From: Bdellovibrionia bacterium | Lineage (GTDB): Bacteria; Bdellovibrionota; UBA1018 | DNA length: 17,778 bases | NCBI GenBank assembly: GCA_049424145.1 | Contig: JBMSSC010000049.1 | Location: forward strand, 1 to 17,778 | Reading direction: 5' to 3' | Part shown: positions 2,279 to 14,991 of the stretch, in pieces | Numbering within the stretch: position 1 is the stretch's first letter | Layout of the letters: the number at the start of each line of letters is the position of its first letter | Made by a program: the position numbers and the translations under genes | The notes under the pieces: generated by a model | Seen by the model: the letters and a program-made list of their open reading frames with translations, nothing else | What the model was told of the DNA's origin: nothing | Databases searched by the model: none

Positions 2279-3040
2279 CTATGGTTGACCCACGGCGTTT
2301 GCCAGATCCGTCCAATACTGAATTCGATCGCCCAAGTCTCCAAAGAGCTCGGATGAGCCAGAAGATGGAGACACAAAACGGCTCTCGCTGAACTCAGGGG
2401 CAAAAACATCTTGCTCTTGTTGTTCAGGTTGAGTCGAATGACGATGAAACTTCTGAAGCTCTCTTAAAATCAGCTGATTGTGGGTCACACAGGTTTGGGC
2501 AACGGATAAAATCTGCTTCAACCCTCTCGGTGAAACGAGGTCTGGCTTTTGAATGGTCTCAACAATTAAAATCACATCGGGGATCGGAAGATCACAGATG
2601 GAACTTCCGTTTTGAGTATAGCAATTCGGATGCGAGTCAAACGCCACATCCATAATCTCCTCACACCGATCTTTTTGCCAAGGAGGCGTAACAAAGGGGA
2701 CTAATGAATCCTGCAAGCACTGCCGTGTGGTGAGCACCCAGCGTTTTCCCTGTGAGCTAAATTTCTGCTGTTCAGAAAATCGCATGCAGTATTTATGACC
2801 ATACCCGAGAGCATATCCTTTTGCCCCACATTCATGGGATTCCTCTAAACACTGGGGATAAAATTGGCAGTCGCCATCTGGATTCAAACACTCGGGGCTC
2901 CAGGCTAAAGCTGGGTTTGGACTCAAAGAGAGGAGCGCAAGAAAAATCAACAGAAGCTCAAGACCTAAGTGAAAAAACCTCAATTGCTTTGTTTGCATTC
3001 CAGGTAAACCGTGACGCAACCTGACTTTTCTATTCCACAT
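2279..3040 (-). CDS. Secreted cysteine-rich protein, stanniocalcin-like domain
   Basis: Hydrophobic signal LLLIFLALLSLSPNPALA, then 10 Cys in the pattern C..C.FY..CLE....CG..GY.L.YG.KYC..F...FS.QG..W...TR.CLQ..L...C......AF.SH..CY....SICDLP. ATG 3040 is preferred over 3115 because AAAGGGGG lies just upstream on the minus strand; ATG 2998 is also possible. The family call is from recall. Confidence 0.75.
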   Translation of the reverse strand: MWNRKVRLRHGLPGMQTKQLRFFHLGLELLLIFLALLSLSPNPALAWSPECLNPDGDCQFYPQCLEESHECGAKGYALGYGHKYCMRFSEQQKFSSQGKRWVLTTRQCLQDSLVPFVTPPWQKDRCEEIMDVAFDSHPNCYTQNGSSICDLPIPDVILIVETIQKPDLVSPRGLKQILSVAQTCVTHNQLILRELQKFHRHSTQPEQQEQDVFAPEFSESRFVSPSSGSSELFGDLGDRIQYWTDLANAVGQP

Positions 3041-3156
3041 CACTACCCCCTTTTTTGTCGGCCAAAGAACCGAAATCCCACTTCTGATGCACCGGACCCG
3101 TGAGTTTCCAGCCATTGGTCTTTTTTTTGAGCTGTTTTTCTACTCCCAGATGCAGT

Positions 3157-4486: not shown

Positions 4487-7400
4487 ATGCGAAAAAGCAC
4501 GCGAGTAGACCCGCTTTTTTCAGCCCTAAGGCGTCGTGTCTTAGTCCTCGATGGCGCCATGGGAACTCGTCTGCAGGCTGAATACCCAGAGAGTTCAAAA
4601 TCAAACGAAAGCACTCACCTGAGCTGCTCGGAACTCCTAAACCTCACTCACCCCTTACGAATTGCCACCCTCCACCGCGCTTACCTCCAAGTGGGATGCG
4701 ACATCATTCAGACTCACACCTTTTCTGCCGATCCCCTGAGTTTAAGACGCTTGGGGTTAGAAAAACAAAGTCACTCCATCAACCTTGCTGCCGCCCAAAT
4801 CGCAAAACAAGTGGCCATTGAATTCTCTACTCCCTCTCACCCTCGGTTTGTAGCCGGAGTCTTAGGTCCAACTCCCCTCTCCACTTGGAGCACCCCGTTG
4901 CCCCCTCCGTCTCAGGACCCAGCCTTCCTTCCTCAGAACCTCACTGAAGCCTACTTTCTTCAAGCCCAAGCCCTCTGGGACGGGGGCGTTGATTTTTTAC
5001 TTTTTGAAACAACTCAAGACATCCGATCCCTTCGCTGTGGACTTGCAGCAGTCCAAGCTCTGAGTCAAAAAACGGGTGAATCGATTCCCGTGGCCGCCTC
5101 TGTGACTCTTGAACCTCAAGGCGTAATGCTCTCGGGCCAAAACCTTCGAGCCCTGCTTGCCTCCTTGACGCATTGGGATCTGCTTTACTTAGGGATCAAC
5201 TGTGGCACGGGAGCCGAGTTTATGACCGATGCATTGGCGACACTCGCCACTCACTCCCCGTTTCCGGTGGCCTGCGTTCCCAATGCAGGATTCCCGGATG
5301 CAAGCGGATATTATCTGGAGAGTCCGTCTACCTTCTCCCATGTCATGTCTCGATTTTTAAGCCACGGGTGGGTGAACCTCGTAGGCGGCTGTTGTGGCAC
5401 CACGGAATCGCACCTCGAAGCACTCGTAAAAGTTGCTCAAACGGCTCCTGCAAGGCCCCTGCCCCTGTTGAGCCCCCCTCCGATCTTCTCAGGACTCGAG
5501 GCTTGTGAGATCAAAACCCAATCGGGGCCAAGACTCGTTCCCCCGACCCTAAGCCCGCTTTCATTGGATCACTCCAAATCAGTTCAATCCCCTGGGGCTT
5601 CTCACCCATGGATTGAACAGGCCCGCATTGAGATCCAAGCAGGAGCTCACTTCATCCCGCTTGAGCTCGACCCCCCAGATCACTTCAACTTCAACTCGAT
5701 GAAGCCACTCATCCAACGGGGCTGCGAAACCCTACGAGCGCCGTTTTTATTCATCTCCCAAGACCTGCAACGACTCACCTGGGCTCTCCACATAGCACCA
5801 GGGAAATCCCTCATCCTCTACAAAAAGGCTCAACTCACCCCAAAGGACCTTGAAACTCTCCTCGAATTGCATCAAAACTTAGGGGCAGGAATCGTGCTCC
5901 CACTTAAGCTCTCCTCCCCAACTTCACACACCCCGTGGTCGCCCCCCGATGCACGAACCATCGACGCGTGGCTGAAAAACCCCAGGGTCGATCCCAAACA
6001 CCTCGTAATTCACATTCAGTGGATGGGGAACTCAAGCCTCCCCTCTTTTTTTTCGCAAAGCCCGAAAATCATTTTGGCCCTGCAGAGAATTCGACAAACC
6101 TGGCCTCAATGCCTCCTGGCTCTCTCAGGAATCGATCCCAAGAAGTGGAAGAAAAAACAACTCTTAGCCGAAACACAGGAAGCCTTAGCCAGCCTCTGGA
6201 CCCACTTCACACACTCCCAAGGAGTGGATCTGCACTGGGGCCCTTGGACTCCTCTCGTGCCCAAGGAGAAACTTCCGACCCGCGTCCTTAGGCTGGCTCA
6301 ACCTCTCTTTTTTTCTTCAACAAAACTGGATCAAAAAGACGCTTGGAGGGAACTGAAGACCCATTTTGCCAAGTCCACCGAAAACCACCCCAACCGCTTA
6401 AAGCCCACCTCCCTTTCTCCCGATGAGCGTCTCAAAAACCTCATTTTAAGCGGATCCAAAGAGGGAATCCATGAGCTCATCGAAGCGTCCGTAAAAAGAA
6501 ATAAAGCGTCGCCACCTCTTCAAGATACCCTTCTTGAGGCCATGAACGAGGTCGGAAGGCGATACGCCAATCGATCGATGATTTTAAGCGAAGTCCTGCA
6601 GTCCGCTGAAGTGATGAAAATCGCTTTGGGCCTCTTGCAGGAGCACCTCCCCCCTCAGGAAACCCCTGGGTCAAAAAAGAAAGTCCTCCTCGCCACTCCT
6701 CACGGCGACGTCCATGAGATCGGAAAAAATCTCGTCTCCATCATCTTAGCCAACACCGGCTTTGAAGTGATTGACTTAGGCACTCAAATCACCTCCGAAC
6801 AACTGATTGCAGCCATTGCGCAGCACCAGCCCGACCTGATCGCTCTATCGGGCCTTCTGATGAAGTCGGCCCATGAGATGCTCAACACTGCACATCGCCT
6901 CACTCAAGCAGGCATCTCCACACCCCTTCTAGTCGGAGGAGCCGCGGTTTCTCAAAAGTTTGTTCATCAAAAACTGTCTTCAGCCTATCCTCAGGGAACC
7001 GTTGTTTATGCTGAAAACGTGATGCACGGCCTGCAGCTGGCACAAGCCCTAGTTGACCCCGACAAACACCTCACCTTGAAGCAATCCTTGGAGGAAAAAC
7101 GAGCCCAACCCGGCTCTGAGAAACCTAGGCTCGCTCTCAGATCCTTCGCTTCCCCCCAGATTCGATCCACTCAGATCGCCCCACTGCCCTCGCCTCCAGA
7201 GCCTCTGGACTTTCGTCGTCACGTTTTGGACAACACACCCCTGGATCAAATCTGGGCCTTTGTGAATCCCCTGATGCTTTATGGCAGGCACCTCGGCATC
7301 CGAGGCGCTACCGTTCGATTATTCGAATCCATGTCCCATGAGCCTGAGACTAGAAGACTTTTAGAAAAGCAAGAACCGCAGGCCGTAAAGATCTGGGATG

Positions 7401-8104
7401 CGGTGGAGGAGATCAAATCGAAGTATCGAAACACGGAGATTTTAAGACCACGCGGGATTTTTCAGTTCTTTCGAGCTCACAGCCAAGGAAACCAAATTCA
7501 ACTCTTCCCAGAGGACCATAACTCACTTCTCACGTCTCAGCGCTGGGGCTTTGAGTTTCCCCGGCAACGCATCCCAGACGGTCTATGCCTAGCGGATTAT
7601 GTAAGCCCTGCACTCCTCTCCCACCCCACTGGAAGCACACCCCAGGATAGTGTTGCTCTTTTTATTGTGACCATCGGCAGGGGTGTCCGAGAGCTCGCCG
7701 AATCGTTAAAAAGCCGCGGGGACTACTTCCACTCTCACCTCATTCAAGCGTTAGCCTTAGAATCAGCCGAAGCCTATGCCGAGTGGGTGCATGCCAAGAT
7801 CAGAAAGGCTTGGGGATTTGCCGATCCACCTGAAATGACCCTCTTGGAGAAGTTTCAATCCAAGTATCGAGGCAAGCGCTACTCCTTTGGATACCCCGCT
7901 TGCCCTCGATTGGAGGATCAAGCCCAGCTTTTTGAGATCCTAAATCCCAATGACATCGGAGTCACACTCACCGATGGATGGATGATGGAGCCTGAAGCTT
8001 CCATCTCAGCGCTTGTGTTTCACCACCCTCAGTGTTCTTATTTCTCAGTGGGTCAAACGGCCCTGGACGGAGTGATCGGAGAGGGTGATGAAGACAAGCG
8101 ATAA
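4487..8104 (+). CDS. metH: Cobalamin-dependent methionine synthase homologue with a degenerate methyl-folate (pterin-binding) domain
   Basis: Hcy domain: VLVLDGAMGT, FETTQD, GINCGTG, PNAGFP, GGCCGTT (three Zn Cys intact). Cap: AMNEVGRRY..EVLQSAEVMK. B12 domain: GDVHEIGKNLV, DLG, SGLL, GGAA. AdoMet domain: FPRQ..LCLADY, AEAYAEWVH, RYSFGYPACP, MEPEASISA. The middle domain has the expected length but lacks the folate signatures. Confidence 0.93.
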   Translation: MRKSTRVDPLFSALRRRVLVLDGAMGTRLQAEYPESSKSNESTHLSCSELLNLTHPLRIATLHRAYLQVGCDIIQTHTFSADPLSLRRLGLEKQSHSINLAAAQIAKQVAIEFSTPSHPRFVAGVLGPTPLSTWSTPLPPPSQDPAFLPQNLTEAYFLQAQALWDGGVDFLLFETTQDIRSLRCGLAAVQALSQKTGESIPVAASVTLEPQGVMLSGQNLRALLASLTHWDLLYLGINCGTGAEFMTDALATLATHSPFPVACVPNAGFPDASGYYLESPSTFSHVMSRFLSHGWVNLVGGCCGTTESHLEALVKVAQTAPARPLPLLSPPPIFSGLEACEIKTQSGPRLVPPTLSPLSLDHSKSVQSPGASHPWIEQARIEIQAGAHFIPLELDPPDHFNFNSMKPLIQRGCETLRAPFLFISQDLQRLTWALHIAPGKSLILYKKAQLTPKDLETLLELHQNLGAGIVLPLKLSSPTSHTPWSPPDARTIDAWLKNPRVDPKHLVIHIQWMGNSSLPSFFSQSPKIILALQRIRQTWPQCLLALSGIDPKKWKKKQLLAETQEALASLWTHFTHSQGVDLHWGPWTPLVPKEKLPTRVLRLAQPLFFSSTKLDQKDAWRELKTHFAKSTENHPNRLKPTSLSPDERLKNLILSGSKEGIHELIEASVKRNKASPPLQDTLLEAMNEVGRRYANRSMILSEVLQSAEVMKIALGLLQEHLPPQETPGSKKKVLLATPHGDVHEIGKNLVSIILANTGFEVIDLGTQITSEQLIAAIAQHQPDLIALSGLLMKSAHEMLNTAHRLTQAGISTPLLVGGAAVSQKFVHQKLSSAYPQGTVVYAENVMHGLQLAQALVDPDKHLTLKQSLEEKRAQPGSEKPRLALRSFASPQIRSTQIAPLPSPPEPLDFRRHVLDNTPLDQIWAFVNPLMLYGRHLGIRGATVRLFESMSHEPETRRLLEKQEPQAVKIWDAVEEIKSKYRNTEILRPRGIFQFFRAHSQGNQIQLFPEDHNSLLTSQRWGFEFPRQRIPDGLCLADYVSPALLSHPTGSTPQDSVALFIVTIGRGVRELAESLKSRGDYFHSHLIQALALESAEAYAEWVHAKIRKAWGFADPPEMTLLEKFQSKYRGKRYSFGYPACPRLEDQAQLFEILNPNDIGVTLTDGWMMEPEASISALVFHHPQCSYFSVGQTALDGVIGEGDEDKR

Positions 8105-9209
8105 GCCTTCTGCCGAGACTCAAGCGCCGTGCCGAGTGACCCTTCCCAGTTCTCCCCTTCTCACCGGAATTGGAAGCCTCCCCCATCCCCACTACCCAAC
8201 GGCCTTGGAGTGGAGCTTTCAACTGAGCCTGCCTTTTCTCCCTCAAATTCCTAGGCGAAGCCCCTGGGAAGGGATGATTCCCCAGGCACTCGAGGGCTTT
8301 CCCGGGCTTATGCTTACAGGCACAAAAAAAGTGACCCTCAATTGGACTCATTGGCAGCAACAGGCAGAGACCCTCAGTGAACAACTCAAGATTGCTTTTG
8401 ACAGCTGCGGCACTAGCGCAGGCGATTTCGGCTTAAAAACGCATCCTGAGTCTCTGCAGGCGTTTGAGCCCACACCTCAGTCCATGAGTTGCTGGCACCC
8501 ATTTTTATGGGAGCTTGGGGAGAGAGGCCATGCCTTAGCCAAGATTCAGATTCTAGGACCTCTCACAGCCCCCTGGGCGCTTTCCCTAGAAAACGCTCCC
8601 CGTCAAGCCCCACTCGTTGAGTTGCACACGCAGGTCCATCAATTCCTGCTAGCACGAGCCCTGGCCATGACCCACGCCTTCCTACGACGGGGGATCACGC
8701 CACTGATTTTTCTGGATGAGCCCGGCCTCTTGGTGGTGAACTTCAAAGACTCGAAAGGAGCACTAGCCCTTTCAGAGCTCAAGCTGTTCATCCAAACGCT
8801 TCAAGCACACGGTGCGATTGTGGGACTGCACTGTTGTGGCCAAGCCGATTGGGATTCAATCCTTAAACTCCCCTTAGACGTGTTATCGTTGGATACAAGT
8901 CAATGCCTTCCTCAGGCGCTCCAATGCTCAGGAGCTCAAGCTTTTTCTCATTTTCTTAAAAACGGAGGTCGCCTCGCCTTGGGAATCATCCCGACCACTG
9001 CGGAGGCGGGGCTTGAGGTCATCCGTGGAAAAAAACTCGCTTCTTCTTTACTTCACTTGCTCGAAGCATCTTTTGATGCTTCTGTTCTCGCACAAATCCG
9101 TACTCAATCCCTCCTCACGCCTGCTTGCGGTCTAGCCACCCGAAGCCTGGCAGAGGCTGACTGGGTCTTTAGACAACTCAAGGAGGCACATGCCAATTTC
9201 AGTCTTTAA
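8088..9209 (+). CDS. Core (single-barrel) cobalamin-independent methionine synthase-like Zn methyltransferase, MesB/core-MetE type
   Basis: TGIGSLPH, PFLPQIPRR..WEGMIPQALEGFPG, KIQILGPLT, IFLDEP, GLHCCG (HxC), LSLD, LGIIPT, LLTPACGL (Cys). At about 373 aa it has no N-terminal folate-binding half of MetE. GGAGAGGG upstream; overlaps the metH stop. GTG 8085 is an alternative start. Confidence 0.85.
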   Translation: MKTSDKPSAETQAPCRVTLPSSPLLTGIGSLPHPHYPTALEWSFQLSLPFLPQIPRRSPWEGMIPQALEGFPGLMLTGTKKVTLNWTHWQQQAETLSEQLKIAFDSCGTSAGDFGLKTHPESLQAFEPTPQSMSCWHPFLWELGERGHALAKIQILGPLTAPWALSLENAPRQAPLVELHTQVHQFLLARALAMTHAFLRRGITPLIFLDEPGLLVVNFKDSKGALALSELKLFIQTLQAHGAIVGLHCCGQADWDSILKLPLDVLSLDTSQCLPQALQCSGAQAFSHFLKNGGRLALGIIPTTAEAGLEVIRGKKLASSLLHLLEASFDASVLAQIRTQSLLTPACGLATRSLAEADWVFRQLKEAHANFSL

Positions 9210-10794
9210 AGAAATGATCCCGCTTGCTCCCTTATCTTCTGAAAGCTTTGCCCAGAGTCAACTCCAAGTCAGCCTGATCATTCCCGCACGGCAGTCGGCG
9301 GAAACTCTAGAGGAAACGGTCAAGCAAGCCCATGCCTATTTAAAAACCCGATACCCGGGCCAGTTTGAGATCATCCTTGTACCCAACCCCAAGCCAGGGG
9401 ACCTAAGCGATCCTTCAATCGAACTGAGCTGGGCGATCGCCCAGCGATCCACCCAGGTTCGCGTGGTCCCCCACCTCTCACCGCCGGGCAAAGGAGCCGC
9501 CTTACGCACCGGCGTTCAAGCCGCTACCGGACGGTGGATTTTTTTCACCGATTCAGATCTCCCCTATGATTTAAGCTTCTTTGATGAAGCCGCGGCTGCT
9601 CTTCAATCCGGCGCGGGCTTAGTAGTTGGGAATCGACGACTGGGCCAAAGCACCTTTCGAGTGCCCGTGGGTTTACTGCGGCTGGCTTACCGTCGCCATC
9701 AGCTCGGACTCAGCTTCAATCGCCTGGTTCGGTGGATGCTACCCATCACGACAACCGATACCCAAGCCGGCATCAAGGCCCTTTTAAGGCCGCTGGCGAT
9801 CGAAGCGTTTTCCAGACAACGCTGCCCGGGCTTCTTATTCGACCTTGAGCTTTTTTTAACCGCTCATGCCCAAGGCTACCGCACCCAGCAATTGCCCGTC
9901 ACTCTCCACCTCAATAGTGAAAAAAGCACCGTAAGAGTACTTAAGGAATGTGTGCTCGTTTTGTACTGGCTCACGCTCATTGTGCTGAAAAACTACAGAG
10001 GCGATTATCAGAACACAGCACCGCGGAAGTCCATCTCCAACCTGAAAAAACTTCAGAGCCCCACTCCTCTTTACCCCCGCGTTTCTTGGGACACTCGTTT
10101 TTTTCTTTTTGCTCGCTGGCTTCTAACTCCGTACTTAGAAATGGCCAAAGCTTTACCGCCCGAAGGATTGATCCTCGATCTCGGCTGCGGCCATGGACTC
10201 CTAGCCTTTGCCGCAGTCCAAGATAGCCCAAGAAGAAAGATCTATGGGCTGGACCACGATCCAAAGCGCGTGAAACTCGCCTCTCAAGCCTTCATCCACA
10301 TCCCTGAAATTCAAATTCGCGAGGGGGATTTTCTCAAACTCCCGTGTCCAAGCACGGCTATTGAAGCCTGGCAGCCAACCCGCCCTCACTCCGAGCCACC
10401 CTCTCACCCCACGGCGCCTTTCGGCTACCAAGGGATTGCCATGATCGACGTTTTGCATTATTTTGATTTCTCAACCCAAAAGAGCATCTTAAAAGACGCC
10501 TATGAGCGCCTTGAAGCTCCAGGCACTCTGATTGTAAGGGAAGTGGAGCCGAATTCAGGTCTCATCTCAACTTGGAACCGCTTTTATGAAACCCTGGCAA
10601 CCGGAATTGGATTCACCCAATCGCAGGAAAAAGAGCTCTTTTTTAGAACGCAAGAGGAGTGGTGCCAACTCCTTCGAGAGATCGGATTTGAAGTGACTCA
10701 GAAGCGTTGCAGCAGCGTCTTGTTTTCGGATATTCTTTATCTCTGTGAAAAAACTCAGCCCCAATCGACCCCTCCGAGATCATCCCATGCTTGA
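9190..10794 (+). CDS. Fusion: polyprenol-phosphate glycosyltransferase (GT2, DPM/DPG-synthase-like) + class I SAM-dependent methyltransferase
   Basis: N-half: VSLIIPA, FEIILV, GKGAALRTG, IFFTDSDL (DxD), VVGNR, DTQAGIK, FLFDLE. C-half: LILDLGCGHG, GLDHD, MIDVLHY, GTLIVRE. AGGAGG at 9181-9186. ATG 9214 is an alternative start. Confidence 0.9.
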   Translation: MPISVFKEMIPLAPLSSESFAQSQLQVSLIIPARQSAETLEETVKQAHAYLKTRYPGQFEIILVPNPKPGDLSDPSIELSWAIAQRSTQVRVVPHLSPPGKGAALRTGVQAATGRWIFFTDSDLPYDLSFFDEAAAALQSGAGLVVGNRRLGQSTFRVPVGLLRLAYRRHQLGLSFNRLVRWMLPITTTDTQAGIKALLRPLAIEAFSRQRCPGFLFDLELFLTAHAQGYRTQQLPVTLHLNSEKSTVRVLKECVLVLYWLTLIVLKNYRGDYQNTAPRKSISNLKKLQSPTPLYPRVSWDTRFFLFARWLLTPYLEMAKALPPEGLILDLGCGHGLLAFAAVQDSPRRKIYGLDHDPKRVKLASQAFIHIPEIQIREGDFLKLPCPSTAIEAWQPTRPHSEPPSHPTAPFGYQGIAMIDVLHYFDFSTQKSILKDAYERLEAPGTLIVREVEPNSGLISTWNRFYETLATGIGFTQSQEKELFFRTQEEWCQLLREIGFEVTQKRCSSVLFSDILYLCEKTQPQSTPPRSSHA

Positions 10795-13648
10795 GCGATT
10801 CTTCACCGCACGCAACCTCCAGTGGGTGGAACGCATCACGGGCGCTCTTCTGAGCCTCCTGATTCCTCTTTATGCTTGGAAAGTCTGGGAACAGGGATAC
10901 AGTTACACCGACTTTTCTGTTTATTACCAAGCTGCGCTTCGCTTCGGAGCAGGTAAGTTTCAAGAGATTTACAGCCTCGCAGATGGGGCGTGTCCGTTTC
11001 GATACCCGCCTTTTTTTCTGCCCTTTTTTTCTCCCTTGGCACGCCTGAACTTTCAGACGGCTCGACTCACTTGGTACTTCCTTCAGGTCTTTTGTTTTGG
11101 TGGGGGATTTTATTTCATCTTTAAAACCCTGCGTGCTCTAAATCAACCGCAGGCGTTAGGACTCACGGGGTTGAGCTTTCTGTTCGTATTAAGATTCTGC
11201 TTGGACTGCTGGATGATCGGGCAAGTCTCAAGCCTCATGTTTTTAGGATTAAGCCTGGCTGCTTACTTCTGGGTCACCGAATCGCCCCGGTTAACAGCAT
11301 TTTTTCTCCTGCTCCCCTCCCTGTTTAAGATTGGCCCCGCCGTGATTTATGGGGTATTCCTCTGCCGCCCCATCCAAGAAATCCGACGTGCGATTCAAAC
11401 GGTGGTGATTTCCCTCAGCGTTGCCCTGGTGGGCTTAACTTTCAGTCTTCGGTCCTCTTTTAGTTCAGAGGTCTGGCAAAAAGTTGAGCTTCTTTGGAAA
11501 AACTGGCTCATCATTGTCTTGAACGATTCTCAGTACTTTGATGCCTCTCACTATGGAAGCCAGTCGATGAAGAGCTTTCTTTTGCGAGGGGTAAAAAGTA
11601 GCCTCATCTCAGCTGAGATGGCTCAGAGGATTTACCTGTGGGGCACTCTGCTCACCTGTGGACTTCTTTTTTTCTTCTGGTGTTTCAGAAAGCCTCGATC
11701 CCCATTGGGACGCGGCTTGTTTTTCTCTCTCGGGATTTTCATCTACCTCTGGTTTATGCCTGAGACGTTTAAGTACAGCCTGAGCTTTTTAGCTCTCCCG
11801 GTGGCTTTTCTCCTCACTGCAAGTCGGCTGAATCAATTCCAGGTATTCTCCCTCTTTTTTGGGGCCTGCGTTTTATCCATTCCTGGAAAGGATGTGGTGG
11901 GAGATTTCCTGTTTTTTGGATTTCAAAATCTCTCGCTTCCCTTTTTTGCGACCGTTGCTCTGGGTCTGAGTGCTCTTCAGCAAGCATTTTTGGAATCCGA
12001 ACCCAAGACCATCTGGAGTCAATGGATTCAGCCGGCCTGGAGGATTTTATTGAGAAAGCCTGAGGCTTTGGGTCCTTGGAAACAACTTCCGCCTCAGGAT
12101 AAAACCCTGGACTGCTCCGTTTTAATTCCCATCCAGCTTTCCCCCCCATCCTCAGACAAGAGAGATCCCTCTTTCAGGGACTTCGAGTTCATCGAGGGAT
12201 TCTTAAACCGCCTGGAAGACCAACTCAATCAAGCAGGACTCTTGTTTGAACTCATCCTAATTCCCTATGGAGAAGACCAATCCACCCTGAAAGAAGAGCG
12301 TCTGCTCAATGACCCTCGATTCATGAGGTCCCCCTCCGCCTCCCGTAAAATTCTTAACTCCATCGAAGCCACCACGCGGGCTCGAGCCCTTCGCTCAGGG
12401 TATTTAATCTCACGCGGTCACTTCCTGCTCATCACCAAGCTCGAGCAGCCCTGTGAGCCTTCTTTTTTCACCCGCGCAATCGATGAGCTTAAGCGAGGTT
12501 CTGATCTGGTTCGAGGCAATCGCAGACTCTCCGGGAGCCGATTTGAGATCCCCGTACGATTCCTATCGCTGGTTTATCGACGGCACCAGCTGGGCTTGGG
12601 ATTCAATCAAGCCCTCCGTCTCCTCCTTCCCATTCAAACCACGGATACGCAGGGTGGAAACCTCGCGCTCTCAGACAAGCTTGCTCAGCGCGTGTTTGCC
12701 CTACAAGGTTCGACCGATTTTCTTTTTGATCTGGAAGTCAGCCTCACAGCAACAGGGCATGATTTTTTACAAACTGACCTTCCCGTGTGTATTCAATTGA
12801 CCACCGAAAAACCCATCGCACAGGTGTTTTTGGAAACCCTTCAGATTGCAAAAGAACTGCCCAGCCTTCTGCGTCGGTACAAAAAAGGGTACTATCGCCC
12901 CTACTGCGGTGCCACGGGAATCACCGCGGATGACTGGGGCATGTCGTCAGCGATCAATCAGGGCATTTTAGAGTTGGCTCAATCCGGCGTGATCCGACGG
13001 GTTTCTCTCATGGCCAACACGGGCTTTTTAGAGGAAGGCTTAGAAGAGCTCAAAAAACTGCCTGTGGAGCTAGGCCTTCACTTTAACTTCACCTACGGAC
13101 GATCCTTAAGTGGAGCAAAGCTTTTTTCCTCTCCTCAAGCTCTACTTTTGGCCTGGCTCAAACCCTCTCAGACGCAAAGGTCTCTCCCCTCAGAAACTCG
13201 CCGTGAGCTCGTGGCACAGATTCAGAAACTTCGATCCTTAGGAGTCCATATTGCCTACTTCGATGGTCACCACCACATTCAAATTATTCCAGGACTAATC
13301 CAATCCATTGCAGACATCCTCCATTCTGAGGGAATCAAAAAGGTGAGACTCCCCTACGATCCCTCCCTCTGGCTTTCCACCAAAGCTCCCTTGGTATTCT
13401 TAGCGGCTTTGAGCCGAGCGTCGTTTACTCGTCATGGGTTTGAGTTTATGAAATGCATTTATCCGCAAAAGGCCCATTTTTTTGATCAAGGACGACTGAG
13501 AGCTTGTCTGAGTCAGGGAAAATCCGCAGAAGTCATTGTCCACCCGGCCTCGCACAACGATCTGCACACGCTCGAGTTTCAGGACTCCTACACCGAGGGG
13601 CGGGTGCTTGAGTATCAAGCCTTAAGAATGCTGGGGATTGACTCATGA
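10787..13648 (+). CDS. Triple fusion: GT87-like membrane glycosyltransferase (GT-C) + degenerate GT2 + YdjC/ChbG/HpnK-family deacetylase
   Basis: GT87-like part: TDFSVYYQAA, FRYPPFF, GQVS, FKIGP, SQS, many TM segments. GT2-like part (about 12100-12900): CSVLIP, FELILI, VRGNRR, DTQGG, FLFDLE. YdjC part (from about 12920): ITADDWG, VSLMAN, GLHFNFT, DGHHH, EVIVHP, R..EYQAL. ATG 10787 overlaps the upstream stop (ATGCTTGA) and is preferred over GTG 10745. Confidence 0.88.
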   Translation: MLERFFTARNLQWVERITGALLSLLIPLYAWKVWEQGYSYTDFSVYYQAALRFGAGKFQEIYSLADGACPFRYPPFFLPFFSPLARLNFQTARLTWYFLQVFCFGGGFYFIFKTLRALNQPQALGLTGLSFLFVLRFCLDCWMIGQVSSLMFLGLSLAAYFWVTESPRLTAFFLLLPSLFKIGPAVIYGVFLCRPIQEIRRAIQTVVISLSVALVGLTFSLRSSFSSEVWQKVELLWKNWLIIVLNDSQYFDASHYGSQSMKSFLLRGVKSSLISAEMAQRIYLWGTLLTCGLLFFFWCFRKPRSPLGRGLFFSLGIFIYLWFMPETFKYSLSFLALPVAFLLTASRLNQFQVFSLFFGACVLSIPGKDVVGDFLFFGFQNLSLPFFATVALGLSALQQAFLESEPKTIWSQWIQPAWRILLRKPEALGPWKQLPPQDKTLDCSVLIPIQLSPPSSDKRDPSFRDFEFIEGFLNRLEDQLNQAGLLFELILIPYGEDQSTLKEERLLNDPRFMRSPSASRKILNSIEATTRARALRSGYLISRGHFLLITKLEQPCEPSFFTRAIDELKRGSDLVRGNRRLSGSRFEIPVRFLSLVYRRHQLGLGFNQALRLLLPIQTTDTQGGNLALSDKLAQRVFALQGSTDFLFDLEVSLTATGHDFLQTDLPVCIQLTTEKPIAQVFLETLQIAKELPSLLRRYKKGYYRPYCGATGITADDWGMSSAINQGILELAQSGVIRRVSLMANTGFLEEGLEELKKLPVELGLHFNFTYGRSLSGAKLFSSPQALLLAWLKPSQTQRSLPSETRRELVAQIQKLRSLGVHIAYFDGHHHIQIIPGLIQSIADILHSEGIKKVRLPYDPSLWLSTKAPLVFLAALSRASFTRHGFEFMKCIYPQKAHFFDQGRLRACLSQGKSAEVIVHPASHNDLHTLEFQDSYTEGRVLEYQALRMLGIDS

Positions 13649-14991
13649 GCCAGCTCCAAGCGACGCTCCCGATTGAAAATGAGGATTTAAACCCAGCCAG
13701 CCTCGCTTCGGACAAAAAAGCTAGACTGAGTTGGAAATGGATTTCATTCTTAAGTCTCGCATTTTTAGCAGGCGTAGCGCTGCGCTTAAGCTTTGTTCAG
13801 GACATGGAATACAAAGAAGATGAGCAGATTGACTTTTTAGCCAGTCAGCTCAAGGGAGGTAAAGACGCTTGGCCCTGGTTTGGTATGCCCTCAGGCGTAT
13901 ACCTGGTCAATCCAGGAATGAGTCTTTGGGTATTTACGATCTTAGCTCGTCTTTTTGGAATCCACCATCCTACGGATTTAGCTCATGCCGTACAGGCTGT
14001 GGCTCTGATGGGCATGAGTCTTCTTGTTCCCTTTGCCTTAATCTGGGTGGCTGAGCAGGAGAGGAAGCTTTGGCTTTGGAGCTTTGCCCTAGCACTTGTG
14101 AACCCCTTTTTAGTCCTCTACCATCGAAAGCTTTGGCCGGAGGGATTTCTTCCTTTGTTCTCTGTACTCATCCTCATGGGGTGGTGGCGGAAGAGGAGTT
14201 TTTTTTGGGCTTTTCTTTGGGGTTTATCTGGGGCCTGCATAGGTCAGATTCACATGAGTGGATTTTTCCTCTCGGCTGCTTGTGTGCTCACCACTCTGAT
14301 TTGGGATCGAAAGCACACGGCGTGGAAAGGTTGGTTTTTAGGTTCAACCCTGGGGGCATTACCCCTGATTCCGTGGTTGATTCATATCGTGCAACACCCG
14401 GTGGGCCATTCCATGAGCGTGGGCTGGGAGGAAATCCAGCAGCTCAAGTTTTGGGTATTTTGGATCACCGACGCCCTGGGACTTCATTTGGGAACGTCCC
14501 TTGGGGTACATCGCGGCCCTCACCACTTTGATCAACTTGCGGACTTCATTCGGTTTCCCATCGTCTGGGGTCGGCCCTCCTATCTCGTCGGGGTGGCTCA
14601 TGGGGTATTAGCGGCTAGCGGGCTTGGGGTGCTCATCGAGTTAGGAAAAAATCGGTTCACTCAATTACGCCTGTCACGCCCAACGAAACTGGTCGTTACC
14701 TCGGCGTTTTTGGGCTGCGGGATACTTCTCACTCTCACGGGGGTTGCCATCCGTCGTTACTACCTGACTTCGACTTTTCCACTTGAGTTCTTAAGCCTCG
14801 TTGCTGCTGCGAATCCGAACACCCGACGTGGAAACTTCATTTTAGGCGCGATCTGGGTTTGTGAGCTCATCATTTCAATTAATTTTGTGTATTATATTCA
14901 CACCCACCAAGGTGCGCCTTTAGGGGATTACGGACAGGCGTACCACCTGATCGAAAGCTCAGAAAAGAATGCTCATCCTGAGCTTTTTTAG
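13645..14991 (+). CDS. GT-C fold integral membrane glycosyltransferase (ArnT/PMT_2, GT39/GT83-like)
   Basis: One TM helix ending LRL, then acidic EYKEDE loop motif; G..NPG; NPFLVLYHRKLWP; QIHMSG; many TM segments. ATGA overlap with the upstream stop. Confidence 0.78.
   Translation: MSQLQATLPIENEDLNPASLASDKKARLSWKWISFLSLAFLAGVALRLSFVQDMEYKEDEQIDFLASQLKGGKDAWPWFGMPSGVYLVNPGMSLWVFTILARLFGIHHPTDLAHAVQAVALMGMSLLVPFALIWVAEQERKLWLWSFALALVNPFLVLYHRKLWPEGFLPLFSVLILMGWWRKRSFFWAFLWGLSGACIGQIHMSGFFLSAACVLTTLIWDRKHTAWKGWFLGSTLGALPLIPWLIHIVQHPVGHSMSVGWEEIQQLKFWVFWITDALGLHLGTSLGVHRGPHHFDQLADFIRFPIVWGRPSYLVGVAHGVLAASGLGVLIELGKNRFTQLRLSRPTKLVVTSAFLGCGILLTLTGVAIRRYYLTSTFPLEFLSLVAAANPNTRRGNFILGAIWVCELIISINFVYYIHTHQGAPLGDYGQAYHLIESSEKNAHPELF

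Follow-up and report, generated by a model that had tools for sequence, protein, structure and literature searches.

The window analysed here is a stretch of 17,778 nucleotides from a Bdellovibrionia bacterium (contig JBMSSC010000049.1 of assembly GCA_049424145.1). It encodes a protein of 1205 amino acids (aa) (4487..8104, + strand) which derives from the Thermus-like clade of the methionine synthase MetH and has lost its site for methyl-tetrahydrofolate (methyl-THF). This loss is real, selected and recurrent, and its meaning is changed by two further genes, namely that of a second, intact MetH in the same genome and that of a conserved zinc methyltransferase homologue directly downstream, hereafter called the partner. 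Judged by its sequence, the 1205-aa protein is a variant of MetH which by its folate site falls outside the family, and its methyl-THF:homocysteine methyltransferase activity is predicted to be absent.

Pfam finds the homocysteine (Hcy), cap, cobalamin (Cob) and activation (Act) domains of MetH in the protein, and its best matches in the PDB are Thermus MetH, with an alignment spanning the whole length. The module order Hcy-Fol-Cap-Cob-Act, where Fol is the folate domain, is kept in one chain of about 1200 aa. The protein thus shares module order, length and the Zn, cobalamin and S-adenosylmethionine (SAM) sites with MetH of the Thermus thermophilus/filiformis type (TIGR02082; PDB 8SSC, 8G3H, 5VOO). 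It differs in lacking the folate-site residues, in its eroded cap, in coexisting with an intact MetH and in its TIGR02082 score of 662 bits, which is below the curated cut-off of 1010.85 (the second MetH scores 1647.8).

The Fol domain (residues 346-628; 5522..6370, + strand) had been predicted to retain its length but not its signature residues, and this is borne out, as all five motif changes named are present. All eight folate-site residues are replaced: E353P and N356S (in GERTN), D391P, D423I (IDS), N444L (INS), D509H (DP), N548G (SNVSF) and R564Q. At each of these positions the canonical residue is found in all 26 orthologues, which come from the same family and order (relatives named Bdellovibrionota). 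In the human enzyme, folate is contacted by N470, D537, N579 and R591 (PMC13376404), which correspond, mapped via the second MetH of the genome, to L444, H509, G548 and Q564; within the pterin/p-aminobenzoic acid contact set only the R384 position is kept, as K364. The D509 position is also that of D522 in E. coli (Escherichia coli) MetH; with Asn in its place, folate binding and activity are lost (10.1101/2024.08.29.610163). Per-domain profiles, suggested earlier as a check, agree: next to the four other domains, Pterin_bind has no match in the protein even at E 0.1, and a genome-wide search with this profile matches only the second MetH and FolP.

An assembly error, which the original prediction had left to be checked, is rejected, as the sequence is found without any difference in contigs of two runs, X3 (5445-6100) and X4 (5899-6295), which belong to two studies distinct from that of the best holder, X1. 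For 6296-6370 an exact match is provided by X1, joined by X2 only from 6355 onwards. Runs X3 and X4 also contain a relative at 90% identity. A frameshift is likewise rejected, since an intact Fol domain matches this region solely in the gene's own frame. That frame is open and free of stops, as had been noted. After neutral mutation of an intact Fol gene (substitutions only), a stop-free frame was left in 1 of 2000 runs at 50% identity and in 0 of 2000 runs at 35% or 27% identity. The domain is hydrophobic at 72% of the conserved hydrophobic Fol columns compared to 24% elsewhere, with only 16% of the conserved polar columns being identical. Because frame and hydrophobic pattern are kept, we regard it as a folded pseudo-domain; a low-confidence single-sequence structure model gives MetH folate domains as first matches. 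From the two roles proposed initially, a scaffold or docking surface and a site for another methyl donor, these figures point to the scaffold. Such a role has a precedent, since the Fol domain is reported to be required for homocysteine methylation by protein-bound methylcobalamin (10.1101/2024.08.29.610163).

Recurrence in the clade and conservation of the other domains

A sample of 119 matches ranked by activation domain, reduced to 115 full-length proteins by dropping four short ones, was used to look for recurrence. Six proteins (P0024, P0027, P0040, P0054, P0059 and P0083) have lost two to seven of the eight folate-site residues, and one further protein has lost one. Pterin_bind scores of these six range from 110 down to none, compared to 136 for an intact control, and their activation-domain scores lie in the normal range. 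Across the seven degenerate proteins, including the one described here, the D423 position reads I, T, R, A, R, D and E and the N444 position L, H, Y, N, H, I and Y, and no new motif is shared; in P0054 and P0059, parts of the folate barrel are deleted. P0024 and P0040 are 84% identical in the activation domain and 60% in the folate domain, compared to a mean folate identity of 92% (minimum 85%) for 32 intact pairs at the same distance. The tree favours five to six origins of the loss (bootstrap trees), but the test does not reject a single clade (p 0.08). Genome G108 encodes an activation domain 94% identical to that of P0040 and has both the partner and a second MetH in intact form; the folate domain belonging to that activation domain is missing from the assembly. 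Separately, metH genes of the clade broken by a frameshift or stop, either an assembly error or a real break, are present at loci L258 (G266:C43) and L034 (G031:C246).

The flanking domains had been described as well conserved, which holds fully for the activation domain only; erosion also affects the cap, cobalamin and homocysteine domains. Compared with orthologues (in brackets, orthologues among themselves), identity is 47% (68%) for the homocysteine domain (4535..5461), 36% (74%) for the cap (6419..6652), 56% (75%) for the cobalamin-binding domain (6668..7066) and 56% (59%) for the SAM-binding activation domain (7184..8062), all on the + strand. When the terminal branch is divided by the median for the 45 intact proteins sampled, the activation domain is at 2x, the homocysteine domain at 6x, the cobalamin domain at 7x, the cap at 18x and the folate domain at 44x. 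RpoC is not accelerated.

Outside the Fol domain, all catalytic residues are kept. The homocysteine domain has the three Zn cysteines of MetH (C239, C302, C303) as well as N266, E174 and F79, and has lost the loop residues T130, K131, D38, E45 and N48 together with R251. Recurrent loss of these five loop residues would fit an uncoupling of the homocysteine site, and R251A is the same change as the engineered R268A (numbering mapped by hand from the PDB alignment). The cobalamin domain retains the motif DxHxxG (D741, H743, G746), as given in PMC10567725, along with SxL (S788) and GG (G817-G818), and its surface polar residues are eroded. The reading DVHEIG instead of DVHDIG, pointed out earlier, is present (D744E) but fits DxHxxG, in which this position is variable. 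DVHDIG occurs in 141 of 143 rows and DVHEIG in the other two, both folate-degenerate; the position equals Thermus D762, which stabilises capped states (numbering mapped by hand). In the activation domain, conserved near orthologue level, 75 of 81 near-invariant columns are kept, as are the Arg and Tyr of the MetH activation domain (R1131 and Y1136, the latter being the equivalent of Tyr1139 of E. coli).

A second MetH and a MesB-like partner

The source genome (G000), which is 95% complete, additionally encodes a MetH of the E. coli type, which has all motifs and its own activation domain and is just 29% identical to the 1205-aa protein. This second MetH clusters with its counterparts in G085, G115, G031, G108, G086 and G030 at 68-74% identity, and its gene adjoins guaB-guaA. 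MetF, FolP, S-adenosylhomocysteine hydrolase and, by motif match, MetK are encoded as well; Meth_synt_1 has no match in G000. Directly after the E. coli-type metH lies a 154-aa gene without Pfam match (L314:5909-6409, G000:C76). The same gene position is seen in G115, G086, G030 and two genomes of family f22, where a short MesB-like open reading frame comes next. Other cobalamin-binding proteins of G000 (L218:41-2013, G000:C28) resemble, by sequence reading, lysine 5,6-aminomutase and methylmalonyl-CoA mutase.

The partner gene (8085..9209, + strand) overlaps the stop of metH and encodes 374 aa, a single MetE catalytic barrel without the N-terminal folate half. Its structure model has a pLDDT of 90.5, with MesD and the MetE catalytic half as best matches. 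H249, C251, D270, C348, S31 and D211 are intact and invariant in 24 and 84 homologues (two alignments); the Zn ligands are spaced +2/+19/+78 compared to +2/+19/+76 in core-MetE, and S31 and D211 are called homocysteine-binding by motif and spacing, not by structure overlay. The single barrel, the H-x-C...D...C Zn set and the Ser and Asp are shared with the core methionine synthases MesB and core-MetE of Dehalococcoides, as described in PMC7005905 and PMC7857596. Unlike these, the partner is tied to metH, and CdhD (PF03599) of the corrinoid iron-sulfur protein (CoFeSP), the only CoFeSP family searched, has no match in the 95% complete genome. For lack of this CoFeSP the partner was not filed as MesB; the likeness is suggested by structure model and residue spacing. 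MesX (DUF1852) has no match among the window proteins scanned, the whole genome not having been searched for it. According to PMC7005905, core-MetE passes the methyl group of methylcobalamin to homocysteine, not to cysteine, glutathione or dithiothreitol. Price et al. (PMC7857596) point out that a different function is possible for distant homologues of MesB where the bacterium has other methionine synthases.

Partner and MetH clade occur together. Based on hand counts, in which kin are not independent, 53 of the order's 116 genomes encode the partner, and all 53 also encode a MetH of this clade. None of the 38 order genomes having only another MetH type encodes it, and in 13 genomes the clade MetH occurs without the partner. 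In other classes of the phylum, all 21 close partner homologues fetched adjoin the same MetH clade, and most of the more distant ones fetched do not. The MesB-like subfamily comprises 905 matches among 8000 candidates scored. At one locus (L038, G115:C239) a MesB-like gene lies on either side of metH; in other genomes of family f2 there is a more distant copy, located solely upstream. Of 79 clade loci, 8 have a gene for a cobalamin adenosyltransferase (e.g. L043:5796-6356) close to metH.

Possible functions of the folate-blind protein

In MetH, cobalamin is held in a resting state by the cap and the folate domain until folate binding releases it, and this conformational gating stops a SAM-driven futile cycle (PMC10293825). 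Co-decay of the cap fits, because a folate-blind protein must weaken the resting lock to use its cobalamin. We tentatively favour, at somewhat less than even confidence, a folded, folate-blind MetH paralogue beside an intact MetH, which would supply the MesB-like zinc enzyme with methyl groups as a methylcobalamin carrier fed by SAM and no longer gated. The E. coli-type MetH would first have taken over methionine synthesis from methyl-folate and freed the resident folate site. The cap and the capped-state cobalamin contacts would then have decayed too, removing the gate against SAM in turnover, so that the bound cobalamin could be methylated from SAM by the activation domain in every cycle. 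After docking on the cobalamin domain, the partner may transfer the methyl group to a thiol or selenol which is bound to zinc and resembles homocysteine, and methionine would be regenerated by the second MetH. The N-terminal barrels would be kept mainly as a rigid folded body, which would allow the C-terminal half to be produced and to remain soluble. As the SAM-binding domain and the partner are the most conserved, transfer from SAM via cobalamin and partner to a thiol-like acceptor would be the simplest path.

Such chemistry from SAM via cobalamin to an acceptor exists in EmtAB, the SAM:estrogen methyltransferase, in which cob(I)alamin receives a methyl group from SAM in every turnover, to be handed on by a second module, as described in PMC7448270. 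EmtAB consists of different proteins, is anaerobic and has a carbon acceptor; it serves as an analogy only. In the split MetH/MtgBCDE of roseobacters, one corrinoid module likewise serves methionine synthesis and another methyl transfer, but as separate polypeptides with a working pterin module according to PMC12478193, compared to a fused MetH with a dead one here. It is possible, although doubtful, that full-length MetH has been rewired several times in one clade into a folate-blind, SAM-driven corrinoid methyltransferase system supplying a MesB-like enzyme in bacteria which lack the Wood-Ljungdahl pathway, in which case MetH would be the missing corrinoid donor of this MesB-like subfamily and the acceptor would not be homocysteine.

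Several observations weigh against the carrier role. The partner keeps the Ser and Asp which bind homocysteine in MetE, and with homocysteine as acceptor the SAM-fed cycle would be futile. All homocysteine-domain Zn ligands are kept in the seven degenerate proteins, and a related strain shows 9 synonymous and 3 non-synonymous codon changes in this domain (one contig, depth 3.9, with 13 of its 14 differences listed); both argue against a pure scaffold, which would not obviously need them. The cobalamin domain on which the partner would dock is eroded, at 7x and with 8 of 25 conserved polar columns identical, and Flavodoxin_1, bearing on the reductant for cobalamin, has no match in G000. In G115 and G007, the resident folate domain is intact with both MetH types present, the same being true of G031 in its assembled part, and G085 shows only mild drift, against a strict rule. 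G086 and G030 have a related second MetH and no match to the MetH-partner pair, so the pair can be lost.

The kept Zn ligands, with E174 and F79 in 7 of 7 degenerate proteins, and the synonymous excess would suit a folate-independent methionine synthase. In that case the partner would charge cobalamin with a methyl group taken from a methylated nutrient (e.g. S-methylmethionine or another sulfonium), methionine would still be made by the homocysteine domain, SAM would be used for repair only and the barrel would be a scaffold for the homocysteine-on state. The structural need for the Fol domain mentioned above (10.1101/2024.08.29.610163), the O-, S- and halogen-demethylases in the UroD/MetE superfamily (PMC10418091) and the single corrinoid serving folate and a second donor in MtgBCDE (PMC12478193) also speak for it, yet we consider it unlikely. 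A staged decay without any new pathway of methyl transfer, the gene having been made redundant by the gain of the second MetH and being retained for a minor C-terminal role in cobalamin storage or trans-reactivation, also seems improbable. It would account for the acceleration of every domain but activation, the graded series of loss (6, 5, 4, 3, 3, 1 and 0 of 8 residues) and the frequent lack of a pair match in relatives with E. coli-type MetH (G086, G030, G004, G110), and the activation domain of T. maritima is a separate protein (PMC10293825). However, free decay predicts about 6 to 10 stops in the folate domain, the conservation of the partner is almost normal, the second MetH already has an activation domain, and the degenerate state recurs on the bootstrap trees (5-6 changes).

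Alternatively, the folate domain of the second MetH might methylate the cobalamin of the 1205-aa protein, with the folate-derived methyl group passing to the partner. MetH halves function in trans in vitro (10.1101/2024.08.29.610163), the second MetH and MetF are present and a weakened cap would ease access; still, with two MetH only 29% identical, an eroded cobalamin-domain surface and the activation domain as most conserved part left unexplained, this is quite unlikely. Least probable by far is a folate barrel itself re-specialised for a new methyl donor, as the original prediction also allowed. Homologous barrels do take other substrates, and length and barrel pattern are kept, but the residues at the lost sites differ among the seven degenerate proteins, none being shared as a new feature, the barrel is incomplete in P0054 and P0059, the rate is 44x and this domain variant has no relative in 5.8 billion proteins or 1.84 billion representatives.

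Whichever role applies, the degenerate proteins form a series of natural knockouts of a single MetH module, in which the cap decays as well, and so put to the test the model of folate binding gating MetH conformations, and the MesB-like subfamily is tied to a specific corrinoid partner, making the question of its function directly testable. Our literature searches found no published description of a folate-blind MetH variant. Such genes (P0024, P0040) are annotated as methionine synthase although likely unable to use folate.

Other genes in the window

Behind the partner, three genes lie on the + strand at 9190-14991: a GT2 glycosyltransferase-SAM methyltransferase fusion (9190..10794), a GT87 and YdjC-like fusion (10745..13648) and a membrane protein, suggesting a surface glycosylation operon. 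In part of the clade, both fusions keep this syntenic position after the partner, the GT2-methyltransferase being common to 18 of the 79 clade loci examined. On the other side of metH, two tandem Rieske/VanA-like oxygenase genes (63-2242, + strand) were not found as a shared metH neighbour family in related loci. They are followed at 2279-3115 (- strand) by a gene for a secreted-looking protein with a Pfam match to Stanniocalcin (E 7e-6), a mainly eukaryotic family.
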